A stretch of DNA of 64,000 nt, from the NCBI GenBank assembly GCA_963799775.1, contig CAWCYD010000003.1:1760001-1824000 (forward strand), in the 5' to 3' direction. The position numbers and the translations under genes were made by a program. Below are positions 1,963-9,299 of this stretch, piece by piece. Position 1 is the first letter of the stretch; every line of letters starts with the position of its first letter. The stretch is from an uncultured archaeon (GTDB taxonomy: Archaea > Thermoproteota > Nitrososphaeria > Nitrososphaerales > Gagatemarchaeaceae). Below the pieces are notes generated by a model. It made no database searches, was not told the origin of the DNA, and saw nothing but the letters and a program-made list of their open reading frames with translations.

Positions 1963-4713
1963 TCAATGAAGAGCGACTGCGTATTCAAATGGTTTGAATG
2001 AATGGGACGTTCTGGCCTTCAGATTCTTAACCAGTGTTTGGACGGTGTCTTTGTAGGCTTCCATAAGCGTGATCTCTCGTTCTCCGCGGGACACAACAAC
2101 TCCGTCAGCTGCTTCGCCCACCGTTTCCAGCACTCCAACAACCTCCGGTCTCGGATAATAGAAGCGTGCCCCATGCCTGTCGGTGGAGCTGTAAAAGTCC
2201 CTCCAGTTCACGCTGAAATCCAGAACGGCCTCGAGCAGCTTCTCCCTGTCCGCGAACTTGAAGGGGTCGATCAAATCCAGATTCAACCCGAGGCCCTCAG
2301 GATTCCACCTCTTCCTGTGGAGGAACCCCTCCCCCGGGTCTGGGTCAAGGCCCAACTGCACGTTGACTGACCTAGCCTTGAAGAGCCTCCGTTGGTGCAG
2401 GTAGTTTATCGCCGCGTCCATCGCCGTGTACCCCCGCGCCCTTCCCGTGGGGGTCGTGACGTACTCCCTCACGAAGCGCGCTTTCTTGCGCGGCCCTGAC
2501 CTTTGCAGCACCGAATTGAGCGCGAGATGATAGGTGCCCCAGTACTCCTTCATCACCAATGCCTCATGGGCCAAGAACCTGCTCGGCGGCACCCGTTCGA
2601 GGCGTCGCATCACTGCCTTTTGCCTTGCGATAGACGCTTGGACGTGGCTCCCCTCAAGGCGAGCTAGAGACGCGACGCGCCCGGTGGCGTTTATCGCGCT
2701 CTGGGCCATCGCCAAGGCCATCCCGCGAATGAACTCGGGTTGAGAGCGAACGATATCCTCCACGAACGGGGCGATGTCGAACCTATCGACCGGTTTGGCT
2801 TCGATCATGGGACCGGCCGGCTTGGGAAGCGCTCTTACTGTCATGCCGGCGCTTGCAAGGATGTCAGTCTGCTCCTCGCCCACGATGCCGCCCAGGTCGA
2901 TCAGTGTGCTGCCCGCGAGCGGGATGGACTCGACCTTCCGCTTCTTGAAGATGTAGAGCTTCCCGTCCCTCGACAGCATCCTGTCGCCCGGGAATATCAT
3001 GACCGTCTTGGGCGCCTCTGCGGGATTCTCGTCCGTCTCTGGGGTGCGATGCTCGTCGTAGATGGCCCGCTCCACTATGCTAGGCGCAGAGCCCTGCCTC
3101 TCCTCGATGAGGCGCTTGAGGTCCGAGGAGGGATCGACGCCGGCGAGCGCCTCGTATCTCCTCTTGAACTCGTGCTCGTAGCTGGTAAGCACCTTCACCT
3201 TCTTCTGTCTGAGCGTGAAGTAGCGCGTCCTGCAGTTGCCGCACACCACCATCCCTCCCTTGGGCGGCGTCTCCGGCATCTCCTCGTAGCAGATGTCGCA
3301 TGACTCGGGAAGGGTCTTTCGGGTGTAGTCCCTTTTCTTGTCGACAAATTCGAGGCAGGCCGTCGAGTGCGGGCCTATCCGCCACGAGTTCCTCATCTTG
3401 TGGAGGTCGAAAGAGGAGAGTGGATGCGGTCCGTCCCTGGTCCATCTGTCGTGCCTGTGGCTGTAAGACTTGTTGAGGAGCCACCAGATCCTGCACTGGC
3501 GCCTAGCAGAGACGTAAAAGGCGCACTGCCCGCACTTGCTGGCCTGGTCGAACGGGAGCTTGCCGGGCATGTGGTAGACCGTTGCGGGGCGGCCTATCTC
3601 CTTGACCCAGGTCGTCTTTTGCAGCTTTCCATCGCGTGCTAGCCCCTCCGCTATTCCGCGCAGGGCGGGTCGGCTCGGGAGGAAGACGTGTAGCTCGGCT
3701 GGCTTCTCATAGTCAAAGTGGTCGTTGAAGATTTTTGGGACCGAGTCGCTCGTCTGGAGTACCTTCTGAGTCTCGGCGTTGACATAATCGAAGAGATTTT
3801 GGATGGTAAACCAGCCCTGCAGGTCGAGAAGGTTCTGGACGAGCACTTCGAGGTAGTCTTGGCCCAACTCGGAGGGGCCTTTTTCCTTCGACTGCCTGAA
3901 CACAGGCTTGGGAGGTTCCTCGGGATTCTCACGTGATTGCGCCACCTCCTCCGTCTCAAGAGCCTCGACCATCTCCCTGCCGTAGTATCCCGCGGTGTAG
4001 AGCCAGCGGGACATCGTGTCCACGAGAGCAGGCCTGCGAATGTTGTCTTCGAGCTCGTGCTCCCAGTTCTCGTTCAGTTTGGAGAAGAGAGTGCTCGCGG
4101 CGGCGAGATGCAGTCCCTGCTTGGAGAGGTGTGTGCCGAAGAGGAGCGAGACGATCGCTTCGCTTGCCTGCCTGGGTCCAAACTTCGCTTTCAGGTCGAT
4201 GACCTCCCCAGGTTGCCCCTCGGCAGCTAACCATTTCCTCGCAAGAGGCTGGAAGGATTCCTCTTCGACGACGATTGTCTTGTGGATGCTAGGCTTGGCG
4301 AGCAGTCGCGTGAGGAGCCCATCGATGTAACCCCTTCTTTCAGAGTCAATCATCCGGCCGAAAGGCGCAATCAGGACGACGATCTGAAAGGCATTGAACC
4401 TCTGCCACTTCATGAACCACCGGAACCACTCCCCGTAGTCAGCCACCAGGACACTCTTCAGCTTCTTGTGGCGCTGAACTCCTGTCCAGTGCCAGTTTTC
4501 ATCCGGGCTCAGGATGTCAACTTGTAGTTCGGAGGCATTGAGGAAGTCGTAGGTCGAATCCTCGTCGATGAAGATGGCGCAGTGGTCGTTCCTGTAGCTT
4601 CGTCTGCTGTCATAGATTCTGTTAGCCACATCTGAGGCCCAGGAAGCCTGTTGGTCGGGAAAGACGAATTCGATTCTTGAGAGAGTGCCGGGCGCGGCGA
4701 GTTGCCGACTCAA
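1963..4713 (-). CDS. Large multidomain solo Cas1/casposase-like fusion protein (916 aa)
   Basis: C-terminal ~345 aa follow Cas1 motifs: HEALVMKEYW, DAAINYL, GLDPDPGEGFLH, LDLIDPFK; upstream CxxC clusters and wHTH-like segment. Confidence 0.85.
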   Translation of the reverse strand: MSRQLAAPGTLSRIEFVFPDQQASWASDVANRIYDSRRSYRNDHCAIFIDEDSTYDFLNASELQVDILSPDENWHWTGVQRHKKLKSVLVADYGEWFRWFMKWQRFNAFQIVVLIAPFGRMIDSERRGYIDGLLTRLLAKPSIHKTIVVEEESFQPLARKWLAAEGQPGEVIDLKAKFGPRQASEAIVSLLFGTHLSKQGLHLAAASTLFSKLNENWEHELEDNIRRPALVDTMSRWLYTAGYYGREMVEALETEEVAQSRENPEEPPKPVFRQSKEKGPSELGQDYLEVLVQNLLDLQGWFTIQNLFDYVNAETQKVLQTSDSVPKIFNDHFDYEKPAELHVFLPSRPALRGIAEGLARDGKLQKTTWVKEIGRPATVYHMPGKLPFDQASKCGQCAFYVSARRQCRIWWLLNKSYSHRHDRWTRDGPHPLSSFDLHKMRNSWRIGPHSTACLEFVDKKRDYTRKTLPESCDICYEEMPETPPKGGMVVCGNCRTRYFTLRQKKVKVLTSYEHEFKRRYEALAGVDPSSDLKRLIEERQGSAPSIVERAIYDEHRTPETDENPAEAPKTVMIFPGDRMLSRDGKLYIFKKRKVESIPLAGSTLIDLGGIVGEEQTDILASAGMTVRALPKPAGPMIEAKPVDRFDIAPFVEDIVRSQPEFIRGMALAMAQSAINATGRVASLARLEGSHVQASIARQKAVMRRLERVPPSRFLAHEALVMKEYWGTYHLALNSVLQRSGPRKKARFVREYVTTPTGRARGYTAMDAAINYLHQRRLFKARSVNVQLGLDPDPGEGFLHRKRWNPEGLGLNLDLIDPFKFADREKLLEAVLDFSVNWRDFYSSTDRHGARFYYPRPEVVGVLETVGEAADGVVVSRGEREITLMEAYKDTVQTLVKNLKARTSHSFKPFEYAVALH

Positions 4714-5403: not shown

Positions 5404-5844
5404 ATGAACACCTCTTCTAGATGGATGACCCGAGCGCACGCCCTCATCCCCCTGACGGAGCAGGAGAGACAGGTCCGCGACCTCCTCCTCGAGCAGAGAC
5501 TGACGCACCTCACCCACGCGGTCTTCCCGAACGGGGGCAGGCTGATAGTGGTGGACTTCTTCCTCAGCGATCTCCGGACGGTGCTCGAGTGCTGGAAGAC
5601 CACGGCCAGGAGCGGGGTCGCATTGGGCTGGATGGAGAGGAACGCCGCGTTCATCGACGTGAAGTTCAGGCGCCTGAAGGGTATGCATCCGGGAATCCGC
5701 TGTGTCGCCCTCGCAGAGGCTCCACACGTAGAGCTAGCGACCCTGTCCAAGGTGATCGGGGAGATCCTGGTCCACGCCGACCATGTGGCGTACTCGATGG
5801 ATGGGTTCGGATATGCTCTTTCGCAGTTGGGAGGCGGAAAGTGA
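5404..5844 (+). CDS. PD-(D/E)XK-like restriction-fold protein
   Basis: VVDFFL...VLECWKT motif; stop overlaps next ATG (TGATG). Confidence 0.55.
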   Translation: MNTSSRWMTRAHALIPLTEQERQVRDLLLEQRLTHLTHAVFPNGGRLIVVDFFLSDLRTVLECWKTTARSGVALGWMERNAAFIDVKFRRLKGMHPGIRCVALAEAPHVELATLSKVIGEILVHADHVAYSMDGFGYALSQLGGGK

Positions 5845-7034
5845 TGCCGCGCCCGCCTTTCGGGAGCCCGGAATGGTTGCCCTACTTCGAGGAGATCGTG
5901 AGGACGAGCAAGACGACGAAGGAGGCGGTCAACAGGTTGGGCTACGCCACCCCTACAGTGGTCTACTATCACCTGAAGAAGTTCGGCATAGAGCGGCCGC
6001 CCGTTTGGTCCAAGCGTCCGTGGCTTCGGGAATTCATGCAGCGGAACATACCACAGGTGATCATCCCCACGACCACAGGTAGGCGTTGGGTCGCTGGATT
6101 GACCCAGGGGGAAGGATGCATTCAAGCTAGGTTCTTCACGCAATACGATGTGACGTATCTCAACCTCGACGTGTCGATGACAGACCCTGAACCTGTCTTC
6201 AGATTCTCTGATTATGTTGGGTTGTCGCACCCGTCAAAACCGGTCAAGAATCACGATTGGAAGCCCAATTGGCACAAGAATGTCTCGGGCCTACGGGCCT
6301 TCAGAGTTCTGCAAGAGATTCGACCCTTCTTACTGGGGGAGAAGTTGAAGGAGGCCGAGAAGGCGCTGTCCTTCTTCGCACCCCGTGGAATCCATTCGGG
6401 CTGCTTTGGGAATCTCGACGTCTGGCCGACGAAAGAATTTCCCTGGAGGACCAAGAGACGTGGTTCCGCTGCATCGACCTTGACAGGCACGCGGATAGAA
6501 TATCCTACGACGGGGCCTGATTCGTTCACCTTGAAATCACGACTCGAATCTGTAAACCCAACCACGGTCATTCATCCTTGGAATGTTGGGCTCGTGAATC
6601 GAGGCAAAGTTCCCGAGGTCATCATCACATCGACGGATGATAGGGCATGGGTTGGCGGCCTGGTCCAAGGCGAAGTGACCTTGGAATCTCATTACGTCAA
6701 GATGTCTGACTCGACGACGCTGATTCTTGGCCTGAGGATGACTGATCCGCATCCTGTCTTTAGGTTCGCCGACTTGTGCGGACTTCCAAGACCGAACCGA
6801 CCAACGGAAAGGCCCAATCGATGGCAGCCGATATGGAGGAAGGATGTCTCCGGGATAAGAGCGCTACGAGTTCTGAAGGAAATCCAGCCTTTCTTGGTTG
6901 GGCAGAAACTTCGCGAAGCCCAGAAGGCGTTCGATTTCTTCGACCTCAACGGCTACCGCCGAGGATGCTTTTACTCATCGGCAATTTGGCCCCCCGACGA
7001 ATTTCCCTTTAGGAGACATCCAGTGGAACACTGA
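5844..7034 (+). CDS. HTH plus tandem LAGLIDADG-like domain protein
   Basis: Start reassigned to ATG 5844; LGYATPTVVYYHLKKFGI HTH; duplicated WVAGLTQGEG / WVGGLVQGEV domains. Confidence 0.75.
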   Translation: MPRPPFGSPEWLPYFEEIVRTSKTTKEAVNRLGYATPTVVYYHLKKFGIERPPVWSKRPWLREFMQRNIPQVIIPTTTGRRWVAGLTQGEGCIQARFFTQYDVTYLNLDVSMTDPEPVFRFSDYVGLSHPSKPVKNHDWKPNWHKNVSGLRAFRVLQEIRPFLLGEKLKEAEKALSFFAPRGIHSGCFGNLDVWPTKEFPWRTKRRGSAASTLTGTRIEYPTTGPDSFTLKSRLESVNPTTVIHPWNVGLVNRGKVPEVIITSTDDRAWVGGLVQGEVTLESHYVKMSDSTTLILGLRMTDPHPVFRFADLCGLPRPNRPTERPNRWQPIWRKDVSGIRALRVLKEIQPFLVGQKLREAQKAFDFFDLNGYRRGCFYSSAIWPPDEFPFRRHPVEH

Positions 7035-7042
7035 ATCTCAGG

Positions 7043-7063
7043 GGGTTCATTGCGCCTCCGCCG
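7043..7063. repeat. Direct repeat copy 1 (GGGTTnnnTGCGCCTCCGCCG)
   Basis: GGGTTCATTGCGCCTCCGCCG; 13-bp core identical in three intergenic copies. Confidence 0.85.
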
Positions 7064-7078
7064 AGATGTATTATCTAT

Positions 7079-7687
7079 TCACGGTGGAAAAGACCCCGAG
7101 TATCCTCCTTCGGCGGAGATGAGCGCTGCCCTCACTTCCTGCGCTGGACAACTTCGCGGTCCATTGGCCCCCGGGAAGTCGGCGTAGCTTACCAGGGGCG
7201 CCGGATATCCGACCGCCAGTTCCAGCGGCTGGCAGATCTGAAGCAGGGTGATGGCGTAGAAGCCTTTGGACTGGAGGCTGGCCGTGATTGTGTAAGCCAC
7301 GATGACGCTCTGACCTTGAGTGAGGTTGATGTAGGCCGGCGACGAGGAGATGCTGACGTCCGGCGCCGGAGCAAATTGTCCGGATGAGGTCCAGAGGTAG
7401 GCCGAGCCATAGGTAGGTTCCGAAAAGGTCTGGTTGAAGAAATCGGTGTAGGCAACGCAGACGACCATCGAGGAACCCGCGTCGATCACGAACGGAGGTA
7501 GCGCGTTTGGCGGTGACGGGCTGGATTGGTTGGATAAGATCGAAAAAGGATAGGACGCTGGGCATATCGAGGTCGATTGTGTGGCCGCCGTGGTTGGAGA
7601 CTGCAGCTGGTCTGCCAGACCCAGGGCCGCCACTCCAATGACTATCACAGCGATGAAGACGTAGGACGCCACCCGACTAGAATCCAT
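7079..7687 (-). CDS. Membrane-anchored secreted protein
   Basis: N-terminal TM, S/T linker, beta-rich Cys-containing domain; sits between repeats 1 and 2. Confidence 0.8.
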   Translation of the reverse strand: MDSSRVASYVFIAVIVIGVAALGLADQLQSPTTAATQSTSICPASYPFSILSNQSSPSPPNALPPFVIDAGSSMVVCVAYTDFFNQTFSEPTYGSAYLWTSSGQFAPAPDVSISSSPAYINLTQGQSVIVAYTITASLQSKGFYAITLLQICQPLELAVGYPAPLVSYADFPGANGPRSCPAQEVRAALISAEGGYSGSFPP

Positions 7688-7767
7688 GCCCAGCCCCCGA
7701 CAGTGAAGAATCAGTAGACGCCGTCGTTATTCAACATTGAGAAGAGCGTGATTCGCCCATGCGTAAA

Positions 7768-7792
7768 GGGTTCGCTGCGCCTCCGCCGGGGC
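7768..7792. repeat. Direct repeat copy 2
   Basis: GGGTTCGCTGCGCCTCCGCCGGGGC. Confidence 0.85.
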
Positions 7793-7847
7793 ATCGTCCT
7801 TGACAGAGTTTATGGGGAGGCGACCAGGAGATTCCACGAAGGGCTCG

Positions 7848-8561
7848 ATGAACGAGAAGGCAATCTTCGCATTCATTATCGTGGCGGGCGTCGTGGCCGT
7901 CGGGTTTGTTGGAATGACCCCGACCAGCACGATAACCCAGACCAGCGCGCTGATCCGGTCAAGCACGGTAGCGGTTCCCTCGAACGTCTCGGCTAGTAAC
8001 TCAACCATCCAATCGACGAATCAGTCAACCAATCAGTCGTCATCAACCTCCATACAATACCCGTTGGTGTGGCAGTCGACTTCCCCAACGGTATGTGACA
8101 TGAATTCATTCTGCGTCGTTGCAACGCTCGGGTTCTCCGGTCAGACGGCGACTGCGAGCGAATCGGCAACCGCGATCACGGGAAGCAATGGAACGACCAT
8201 AGTCGTCTCATCGACCACGACTATCATCAGGACATCACCGTATCCTCAAACAACCGTGATCGAGCCTCCTCAGAACACATCTTACGTAGTCGTGGTGACC
8301 GCATTCGTTCAAGACGCAGTGACTGGCCAGAACGTCACCACGAGCAGCGGGCAATCTTCGCTTGGGGCGGGCTGTGACATACAGCCATCAGGATTTACCC
8401 ACTGCATCATCAGCGCCCCTTCAGGATTGCCTTCCGGAACGTACAAAGTCACTGTATTCGTAACGAAGGAATACAATCCTTGTTCAATACGCGTGGCCGG
8501 CTATCCCTGCACATCACAATTGCTCGCACCACCGAGCCAAACGATCACTATAACGGAGTGA
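7848..8561 (+). CDS. Membrane-anchored Ser/Thr-rich secreted protein
   Basis: MNEKAIFAFIIVAGVVAVGFVG TM, S/T linker, Cys pairs; sits between repeats 2 and 3. Confidence 0.8.
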   Translation: MNEKAIFAFIIVAGVVAVGFVGMTPTSTITQTSALIRSSTVAVPSNVSASNSTIQSTNQSTNQSSSTSIQYPLVWQSTSPTVCDMNSFCVVATLGFSGQTATASESATAITGSNGTTIVVSSTTTIIRTSPYPQTTVIEPPQNTSYVVVVTAFVQDAVTGQNVTTSSGQSSLGAGCDIQPSGFTHCIISAPSGLPSGTYKVTVFVTKEYNPCSIRVAGYPCTSQLLAPPSQTITITE

Positions 8562-8637
8562 CCGAGAGTTGCGGGTTGCTCTAGCTCCCGCTAGTGTTGT
8601 CAAAATGAAAGTAGGCAGGGCATAGTTGCCATACACA

Positions 8638-8662
8638 GGGTTAATTGCGCCTCCGCCGGGGC
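8638..8662. repeat. Direct repeat copy 3
   Basis: GGGTTAATTGCGCCTCCGCCGGGGC, next to a TGCAATG/CATTGCA hairpin. Confidence 0.85.
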
Positions 8663-8770
8663 GTTTTGCTGATGCAATGAGTGTCATCACCGAGCGTTAC
8701 CATTGCAGTGGAATTTGTTTGAACGAAGCTTAATTAGGGGTGAATCAGCCGGCGCCCCATTAAAGAGGTG

Positions 8771-9299
8771 ATGGGGGGTCCACGGAGCCAACTATAGAGC
8801 TGCGAAGTCCATGTTCTACAACAAGAAGTTCGCCCCCGGCACCCCCAATCCCAAGGTCGCGAGGTTCACCACAGGCAAGTTCAGGGGCGATTACGATTAC
8901 AAGCTTGAGCTAGTCGCTACGACCCGGCTCCAGATAAGGAGCAACGCACTTGAGGCCGCGAGGGTGGCGGCCAGCAAGAAGCTCACCCTCGTCGGCGAGG
9001 ACAACTTCTACCTTCGGGTGGTCTCGTATCCTTTTGTCGTCATGCGGGAGAACAAGATGATCGCCACGGCGGGCGCAGACAGGCTCCAGGAGGGGATGCG
9101 CAAGGCCTTCGGCAAGCCCATAGGCGTCGCGGCAAGGGTCTACATCGGCAGCGTCATCTTGGACGTCCTGGTCAAAGCCGAGAACCTGGACAAGGCAAAG
9201 GCCGCGATGAAGGCGGCGACGACCAAGCTGCCACTGAAGTACAAGGTGGTCGTAACTCCATTAGAGAAGAAGGTCGAAGCGGAAGCGGCGGCTGTTTGA
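8771..9299 (+). CDS. rpl10e: 50S ribosomal protein L10e (uL16)
   Basis: QIRSNALEAARV, RENKMIATAGADRLQEGMRKAFGKP; likely start ATG 8771 after GAGGTG with one extra G in a G6 run. Confidence 0.95.

Follow-up and report, generated by a model that had tools for sequence, protein, structure and literature searches.

The window studied here, a stretch of 64,000 nucleotides from the genome of an uncultured archaeon of the order Nitrososphaerales, carries three short direct repeats upstream of the ribosomal protein gene rpl10e, with one gene in each of the two intervals. Our analyses showed that the repeated motif is a copy of the sequence located directly 3' of the 23S rRNA gene. In the same genome (termed G000; 2.47 Mb in three contigs, 59% G+C, 82% complete), copies of this trailer also form a long array that starts at the 23S rRNA gene itself. 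With moderate confidence, we interpret these arrangements as an integron-like cassette system with the rRNA trailer as its site; the window would show a small secondary array of this system.

Rfam models placed the 16S rRNA gene at C3:1861747-1863244 and the 23S rRNA gene at 1863478-1867442 (L099:3478-7442), both on the + strand. The first copy of the long array lies at 1867450-1867470, 8 nt beyond the end of the 23S model. Read on the rRNA strand, the trailer has the sequence ...GAAATGCCCC GGCGGAGGCGCAATGAACCC TTTATGCACGGC and pairs with a 5' leader, GCCGTGCATAGGGTTCGCGCAAGCATCCGCCGGGG, just upstream of the 23S rRNA gene, with a cofold of −99.9 kcal/mol in G000. The leader–trailer duplex reached −82.9 kcal/mol compared with −52.9 ± 6.1 kcal/mol for 200 shuffles (z about −4.9). 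The same stem with the same interior was found in a genome of another genus, and cofolds of G000 and of genome G030 ranged from −80 to −100 kcal/mol. From our inspection of these predicted folds, the stem interior would be a canonical bulge-helix-bulge with a GCGC/GCGC central helix and the bulges AAG and AAU. The repeated 21-mer would then correspond to its 3' strand, composed of 8 nt of inner helix, the 4-bp central helix, a 3-nt bulge and 6 nt of outer helix. Because the native copy abuts the 23S 3' end as a strand of the processing stem, all other copies are duplicates of the 23S trailer. Many internal copies moreover carry native flank of varying extent. Towards the 23S rRNA gene, this flank comprises 0–80 nt of the gene's 3' end, and on the opposite side 0–57 nt of downstream trailer with its T-run; the two extents vary independently.

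Other identities of the repeat were considered and rejected. ARAGORN gave two tRNAs only, both distant, and the motif has no T-arm, which speaks against a tRNA 3'-fragment; an Rfam scan of window positions 6500–9200 (E ≤ 10) returned nothing at the repeats. A small open reading frame (ORF) or peptide was not supported either, as the ATGCAT–GGGTT spacing, judged by eye, varies by 1–2 nt and the third window copy has a stop in one candidate frame. The 23S rRNA gene of G000 itself spans 3965 nt against 2987 positions of the Rfam model. It contains a group I intron at L099:5517-5772, and the leftover excess length suggests further insertions.

Copies of the trailer are abundant in G000. At up to two mismatches, we found 52 matches of the motif versus none for a reversed-pattern control, and an nhmmer search with a profile built from 281 distinct repeat copies of several genomes gave 67 copies at E ≤ 0.01, distributed over nine loci. 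At this threshold, every multi-copy locus has all its copies on a single strand (45/45, 6/6, 4/4, 3/3 in the window, 3/3, 2/2 and 2/2). The largest locus, which we refer to as the primary array, extends over 54 kb (C3:1867439-1921280) and begins 43 kb past the end of the window. Its copies have a spacing of 383–10,281 bp with a median of 912 bp, and at E ≤ 10 it comprises 53 copies, all on the − strand. A first-pass annotation of the window, made from its sequence alone, had named a genome-wide scatter of the motif as a finding that would contradict cassette capture. Such a scatter was found in part, with most copies located in one array.

The motif is distributed across the whole family. We analyzed a first sample of 36 genomes of the family (f1) together with 24 genomes from 19 other families of the order. 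Here, the motif was present in 32 of the 36 family members and in none of the 24 genomes of the sister families. It was also present in 51 of 60 genomes in a second draw from the family, and the 21-mer is conserved across nine of ten genera. Of the genomes tested for this, 10 of 10 have a copy, perfect or nearly so and in antisense orientation, directly at the 23S 3' end, namely G000, G007 (a closed genome from the same genus), G018 (a sister species and the closest relative found, with L10e 86% identical), G021, G027 and 5/5 genomes of genus g9. The arrays extend downstream from this 23S 3' end. The closed genome G030 has one perfect copy at the 23S end, and a degenerate second copy 9.3 kb downstream comes with about 95 nt of duplicated 23S 3' end. 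The interval between the two contains five genes, among them those for a STAND NTPase, a SIR2-like protein, an ATP-grasp protein and a radical SAM protein, and no recombinase gene. A 161-nt copy of the 23S 3' end also occurs in G018 (C3:362896-363056), about 160 kb from the rRNA operon and far from the array.

Public records with the exact 21-mer (90 stretches) are titled as metagenome-assembled genomes of Nitrososphaerales, Nitrososphaerota or Thaumarchaeota, including Candidatus Gagatemarchaeum. A single one of the 90 (L028) is titled Acidimicrobiales bacterium; it is probably a mis-binned archaeal contig, or it may reflect a transfer. The exact 21-mer was not found in viral contigs, and 14 matches of a looser pattern in viral contigs had no flanking consensus and were judged to be chance hits.

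Comparison of the arrays between relatives points to the cassette as the unit of change. At the same locus as G000, with the rRNA operon and its upstream neighbours in synteny, G007 has an array with 46 of 47 copies on one strand. The two genomes share only about seven cassettes, which are repeat-bounded in both and stand in a different order. In G018, 19 co-oriented copies adjoin the 23S rRNA gene (19 of 20 copies are on one strand), and five of its cassettes recur in G000, three in the primary array in permuted order and two in secondary arrays, one at C3:1617546-1618075 and the other in the window. Window positions 7751–8662 align over 922 nt with G018:C3:200830-201744 at 87.4% identity; in G018, this segment is located some 3 kb from the 23S end (3' end at C3:203900). 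This similarity begins in one repeat copy and ends just past the next, with unrelated outer flanks. Likewise within G000, a segment of the four-copy secondary locus (C3:1355760-1357123) is 93% identical, from copy to copy, to positions 1879564-1880931 of the primary array. Judged by these alignments, cassettes have moved as repeat-bounded units, and the same cassettes occur in primary and secondary arrays. The first-pass annotation had proposed that gene-sized cassettes bounded by direct repeats gather at a fixed site, and our comparisons agree with this, also in that the content varies between relatives. In contrast, the fixed site is not the one upstream of rpl10e, as had been assumed, but the 23S 3' end 100 kb away, and the rpl10e site is secondary.

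Cassette units measure 0.4–10 kb. When 85 ORFs of the primary array were compared with Pfam one by one, they included four PIN, four MazE and two VapB matches, two GNAT acetyltransferases and two ArsR-type helix-turn-helix proteins. Single ORFs matched HicA, a Schlafen-like (SLFN) helicase, AIPR, TBP, FtsZ, CorA, thermopsin and an aldo-keto reductase, among others. Paralogues of core genes for information processing and cell division (TBP, FtsZ/tubulin) appear among the cassette ORFs in this tally. The sole 10-kb interval of the primary array (L101:14081-18186; G000:C3:1914081-1918186) encodes an AIPR abortive-infection protein and a Schlafen-group-3-like helicase. A TumE toxin pair is located just beyond the last copy and adds to the defence-island flavour of the locus.

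In the window, the pattern GGGTTNNNTGCGCCTCCGCCG occurs at 7043–7063, 7768–7788 and 8638–8658, in all cases on the + strand and with 0 mismatches. Its chance expectation in the window is 0.01, and three matches were reached in none of 100 shuffles. The copies follow one another with periods of 725 and 870 bp and are all intergenic: the first lies between the stops of the ORFs 5421–7034 (+) and 7079–7687 (−), the second between the starts of 7079–7687 and 7800–8561 (+), and the third in the gap from 8561 to rpl10e at 8811. This arrangement had been described correctly in the first-pass annotation, as had the presence of one ORF with an N-terminal hydrophobic stretch per interval, in opposite orientations. 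The rpl10e-proximal copy had, however, been called the shortest match, whereas it is the first copy that shows the least similarity beyond the core. This copy, with an nhmmer E-value of 3.2e-7 and located 9 nt past the stop of 5421–7034, consists of the bare 21-nt core in reverse complement of the 23S 3' trailer, with 0 nt of native-trailer similarity on either side. The second copy, a CGC variant at the three free positions of the pattern, forms the left edge of the + strand cassette at 7751–8662 that recurs in the 23S-linked array of G018, and the third copy forms its right edge. The upstream flank of the third copy, from about 8583, resembles the flanks of other copies, and window positions 8577–8666 resemble three other copies in G018 at 81–86%.

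Both cassette genes of the window encode proteins with an N-terminal hydrophobic anchor and without a match to a Pfam or NCBIfam family. The first (7079–7687, − strand, 202 aa) has the majority orientation, with the repeat 16 nt past its stop, and its homologues are distant only. The second (7800–8561, + strand) encodes 253 aa with TTG as start, while ATG codons are located at 7812 and 7848, and contains a Ser/Thr-rich region; its homologue in G018 is 85% identical.

The rpl10e gene (8811–9299, + strand) is the conserved right-hand neighbour of this insertion site and is followed by a diphthamide synthesis gene (dph2). The gene order of Cas1 fusion (see below), a 537-aa ORF, rpl10e and dph2 is kept in the relatives G011, G017 and G022. 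The gap before rpl10e measures 89–99 bp in G018 and G011 and contains no copy, whereas it has 905 bp in G022, with one gene between a degenerate and a good copy, and 1777 bp in G000, with two genes and three copies. Here, n cassettes come with n+1 copies, as the first-pass annotation had predicted for this locus. The single repeat that it had expected at empty sites was not found in G018 and G011. As the empty rpl10e site has no copy, unlike the 23S site, we regard the window array as secondary. In G017, the gap is occupied by a 2849 bp insert without a copy; from this it follows that not every insertion at the rpl10e site belongs to the system.

What might the trailer copies do? We infer that the repeat itself is a DNA recombination site, which would work either as in an integron or as an attachment site overlapping the 3' end of an RNA gene, into which DNA integrates in series. 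For this family, which belongs to those Nitrososphaerales that do not oxidise ammonia, the 23S trailer would be an insertion hot spot. Accessory cassettes of 0.4–10 kb would pile up downstream of the rRNA operon, with a co-oriented trailer copy between neighbours, and would be rearranged, lost and gained as repeat-bounded units. Occasionally, cassettes may seed small secondary arrays elsewhere, as for example the three repeats and two cassettes of the window. Exchange at the copies could be either site-specific or homology-driven. DNA exchange at the copies is suggested by the combination of co-orientation whatever the gene strand, one copy per boundary, movement of repeat-bounded units and anchoring at a single site.

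Several observations weigh against this interpretation. Conservative exchange inside the core alone cannot account for the native flank found on many internal copies. Among about 290 copies, a script detected 50 left and 14 right half-sites, of which about 45 and 8 appeared genuine by eye. Their break points are scattered over eight positions, 0–7 nt after AGGGTTCATTGCG, and hence no single sharp crossover point is shown; breakpoint mapping through half-sites and native-flank extents accordingly gave no one sharp position. The interpretation does not account for the seeding of secondary sites, as the empty one has no repeat. Circles or excision joints were not seen; one public soil run (38% of sampled words, low-depth contigs) showed no joints but only those loose ends and depth pile-ups that any repeat gives, and thus speaks neither for nor against. 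Array genes were called with a home-made codon-usage score trained on long ORFs of G000 instead of a validated gene finder, and gene counts in the arrays are hence approximate. Furthermore, no recombinase is linked to the arrays. The absence of a tyrosine or serine integrase from the window, as noted in the first pass, holds true: all five PF00589 matches of G000 are located elsewhere, none of them within 40 kb of the primary array, and in this 82% complete genome there was no match for a serine recombinase/resolvase, a reverse transcriptase or a Y1 transposase. G007 has a single PF00589 match, 36 kb from its array, the tyrosine recombinases of G018 and G021 are likewise distant from the arrays, and G027 with its ten copies has no PF00589 match. 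A zinc-ribbon tyrosine recombinase that we considered as array enzyme was discarded: its relatives are remote from the arrays in both G007 and G021, and none was found in G018.

This zinc-ribbon recombinase occurs twice in G000 (L103:4904-6097 and L104:4721-5776; G000:C3:120904-122097 and 1384721-1385776). The two proteins, with the zinc ribbon at the C-terminus, are 69% identical, and each gene is located 0.5–2 kb upstream of a trailer copy. One or two genes follow in each case (for a DnaJ-domain protein and a STAND NTPase), and then the copy. As the flanks past the copies are homologous (C3:126248-127660 versus 1387706-1389197), the two loci have the appearance of two copies of one integrated element. 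The association of this recombinase with the repeats is weak, since it occurs in 9 of 21 repeat-rich versus 11 of 39 repeat-poor genomes, where repeat-rich denotes at least eight copies in the 60-genome draw from the family. A further arrangement was seen in G021 (C3:292070-340133), where six + strand and ten − strand copies flank a centre of about 20 kb with two tyrosine recombinase matches (304538-305023 and 320246-320710). This is an inverted array pair around a possible element.

The window contains another candidate enzyme. As stated in the first-pass annotation, a Cas1-like ORF is located 2.3 kb from the repeats. It covers positions 1963–4713 on the − strand and encodes 916 aa, with a zinc ribbon-containing N-terminal region of about 560 aa of unknown fold, followed by a complete Cas1 with β and α domains. 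Alone, the ORF matched the Pfam Cas1 family at E 0.003, whereas 12 of 22 aligned family members match it (PF01867; best 1.2e-7), and E717, H799 and D813, the candidate catalytic residues, do not vary among the 22 sequences. An AlphaFold model of the protein (mean pLDDT 80.9) gave as top Foldseek match the Cas1 of A. fulgidus (4N06; E 1.5e-9, TM 0.61–0.63, about 380 columns), and the M. mazei casposase integration complex 6OPM was matched at E 4.6e-9 over 356 columns. As the structural match extends over about 380 columns, both Cas1 domains would follow the first 560 or so residues, and from the structural and the family matches together we regard the protein as a genuine Cas1 fusion. Sequence searches of the PDB with the fusion, either as single sequence or as profile, found no Cas1 match, and a search of the ESM Atlas with its N-terminal 640 aa gave no usable match. 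All 76 homologues found have 500–1000 aa and stem from records of this archaeal group, the few named ones being labelled Nitrososphaerales or Thaumarchaeota. The four ORFs flanking the fusion gene belong to no Pfam or NCBIfam family. The fusion is syntenic in three relatives and therefore does not look mobile. Two shorter or fragmented paralogues in G000 (C3:1829761-1831377 and C3:1732082-1733685) have 29–39% identity and no trailer copy within 4 kb.

This Cas1 fusion had been proposed as integrase of the cassettes. It could integrate gene-sized DNA at the trailer by staggered attack and thereby duplicate the repeat, with the 23S 3' end in the role of a 'leader'. We consider this mechanism distinctly unlikely, although several points speak in its favour beyond the complete Cas1 fold and the invariant residues. 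The fusion is confined to the family, with 14/36 genomes versus 0/24 outside, and duplicates of variable length with native flank would be expected from a variable second cut by Cas1. A repeat copy lies 23–87 nt from the 3' end of the fusion gene in the rpl10e-linked orthologues of G011, G017, G020 and G022. According to the available excerpts of PMC6563490, PMC5137440 and PMC6614799, a site at the 3' end of an RNA gene together with direct repeats also matches casposon targets and tandem casposons. The predicted co-occurrence was seen overall, with the fusion in 12 of 21 repeat-rich versus 3 of 39 repeat-poor genomes (Fisher 5e-5, uncorrected for kinship). This contrast, however, is due to a single genus, represented by 20 genomes, in which copies are few and the fusion is absent. 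For the genus of the window (g1), the numbers were 7/13 versus 2/8 (p 0.37), equal to those of a control recombinase (8/13 versus 2/8). Arrays in genomes without the fusion, named in the first pass as evidence to the contrary, do occur in part: in nine of the 21 repeat-rich genomes, among them G018 and the closed G007 (35 copies, 13 perfect), no homologue turned up even when the query was reduced to the Cas1 domain. At 18 other fusion loci, examined with 4 kb of flanking sequence, a weak adjacent copy was seen in one case and a copy elsewhere in the flank in two further cases. Neighbouring repeats resemble each other no more than shuffled pairs do (617 versus 620.8 ± 12.4 in three arrays), so that a signature of target duplication is missing, and the empty rpl10e site offers no repeat for Cas1 to duplicate. 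Cassettes moreover change place, whereas to our knowledge no Cas1 enzyme excises DNA, and the fusion may be mere cassette cargo. Given the nine repeat-rich genomes without the fusion, the co-occurrence confounded by kinship and the lack of likeness between neighbouring repeats, the link of this candidate integrase to the repeats is weak. About as doubtful is the full picture in which a zinc-ribbon Cas1 fusion captures whole genes at the 23S bulge-helix-bulge trailer, as a 'CRISPR array of genes' with the rRNA 3' end as leader. If true, such a Cas1-driven gene array would represent an extant link between casposons, CRISPR adaptation and the integron-like capture of genes.

Alternatively, the copies may act in RNA, as a signal in the 3' untranslated region or for processing, as a bulge-helix-bulge half that pairs with the pre-23S leader, or as a terminator, while genes would be shuffled by homologous recombination. 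We regard this as unlikely and at the same time as a serious rival. The 21-mer is exactly a bulge-helix-bulge half-site, the half-motif that the endonuclease recognises, with 6–8 nt of each flanking helix, and fuller copies keep the native T-run after the trailer. In G027, 7 of 10 copies have T at position 2, which is the trailer variant of that genome. Helix positions are 95–99% conserved in the 281 copies, whereas bulge positions 1 and 3 vary in 7–10%, although this variation is inflated because the set was chosen with three positions left free. The stronger conservation of the helix compared with two of the three bulge positions also fits a constraint at the RNA level and thereby weakens the case for DNA exchange. 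Of the array genes, 53 of 82 have rRNA sense, and for this majority the copy lies a median of 43.5 nt past the stop. The 29/82 genes in opposite orientation, however, would lack the signal in their RNA, yet the repeat orientation in the array is constant. Moreover, the genome has one leader strand only, and the bare copy at 7043 stands in the wrong sense after the + strand ORF 5421–7034. Finally, the copies may be functionless, either as a selfish or passive repeat similar to miniature inverted-repeat transposable elements (MITEs) or repetitive extragenic palindromic (REP) elements, or as gene-conversion debris of the trailer in a gene-poor, fast-evolving island. Copies are intergenic, many are truncated or degenerate, their native flank differs from copy to copy and no enzyme is linked to them. 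We nevertheless think this very improbable, as it does not agree with the strict co-orientation (45/45 in G000, 46/47 in G007 and 19/20 in G018), with one copy per cassette boundary in arrays anchored at the 23S end, or with the conservation of the 21-mer in nine of ten genera. Terminal inverted repeats, self-folding above the level of shuffles and a Y1 transposase match are lacking as well.

Among known systems, sedentary chromosomal integrons and clusters of attC sites lacking integron-integrases (CALINs) come closest to the cassette arrays described here, and integrons have been reported in Archaea (excerpts of PMC9668308). As far as these excerpts go, the likeness comprises long arrays at one locus with short, mostly promoter-poor accessory cassettes and co-oriented site-like repeats, a cargo of toxin–antitoxin and acetyltransferase genes, hypervariable shuffled content and small satellite clusters. 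As in an integron, the cassettes are co-oriented, have one site each and vary between relatives. In contrast, there is no IntI here, with a best NCBIfam integron-integrase score of 23.4 bits against a cut-off of 265, and attI is likewise absent. Roughly one gene in three is reversed. The 21–26-nt repeat is derived from the rRNA trailer and identical across genera, and its conservation concerns the sequence of a single RNA-stem strand instead of an attC-type hairpin. Eight single-strand DNA folds around four copies, on both strands, gave z-scores from −1.58 to +2.20, no better than shuffles, and an attC-like hairpin was hence not supported. Tandem casposons and tyrosine-recombinase elements, as far as described in the available part of PMC6563490, similarly have a target that abuts the 3' end of a structural RNA gene and direct target repeats, some with a copy of the gene 3' end, and their reuse leads to arrays. 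The units found here, however, consist of one to few genes, dozens per array, without their own integrase, polymerase or terminal inverted repeats. Their target is the 23S rRNA trailer, whereas neither 'rRNA' nor '23S' appears in the text of PMC6563490.

With CRISPR, the arrays share a short direct repeat (21–26 nt) in uniform orientation, a conserved adjoining 'leader' and a Cas1 homologue in some genomes. On the other hand, the 'spacers' measure 383–10,281 bp, compared with about 25–70 nt in CRISPR arrays, and code for genes, there are no adjacent cas genes, and the repeats fade into partly conserved flanks and resemble their neighbours no more than at random. REP elements and bacterial interspersed mosaic elements (BIMEs) with their REP-associated tyrosine transposases (RAYTs), as well as MITEs, are short intergenic repeats with many copies. 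The trailer copies differ from these in that they do not self-fold above shuffles, come without a Y1 transposase match, are co-oriented and mark cassette boundaries. Accessory islands at RNA-gene-linked or recombinase sites are also represented by the tycheposons of Prochlorococcus, the pdif modules of Acinetobacter plasmids and the inter-rRNA hypervariable region of SAR11. These likewise have modules bounded by short sites but employ other sites and enzymes. None of these islands is known to use a strand of the rRNA processing stem as repeated boundary. Neither literature searches nor term look-ups in PMC10640624 and PMC6563490 brought up an account of repeats derived from the rRNA trailer or of such arrays; the survey of integrons in 75 archaeal genomes, seen in excerpts (PMC9668308), may list some of the genomes concerned.

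If cassettes do recombine at the trailer copies, the integron-like system would represent an archaeal gene-capture platform that arose independently of integrons, with its own type of site. The system occurs across a widespread family of archaea from acid soils and peat, and its arrays would store toxin–antitoxin and defence genes beside the locus with the highest transcription in the cell. It would be a place to seek a new recombinase or a new use of Cas1, and it makes the acquisition and shuffling of accessory genes in uncultivated soil archaea testable. For annotation, it is a warning that intergenic 'repeats' of this kind are derived from rRNA.

The neighbours of the insertion site in the window show features of their own. 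The 537-aa ORF (5421–7034, + strand) contains internal repeats, is divergently oriented to the Cas1 fusion and is syntenic with it in G011, G017 and G022. Its residues 142–349 and 390–537 match the same regions of relatives and belong to no known family, and its C-terminus varies between species right to the edge of the insertion site. On the other side, a block upstream of rpl10e, GAAGCTTAATTAGG (window positions 8700–8760), is kept in most relatives whose sequence was printed. This block is probably the rpl10e promoter and marks the right edge of the insertion site.

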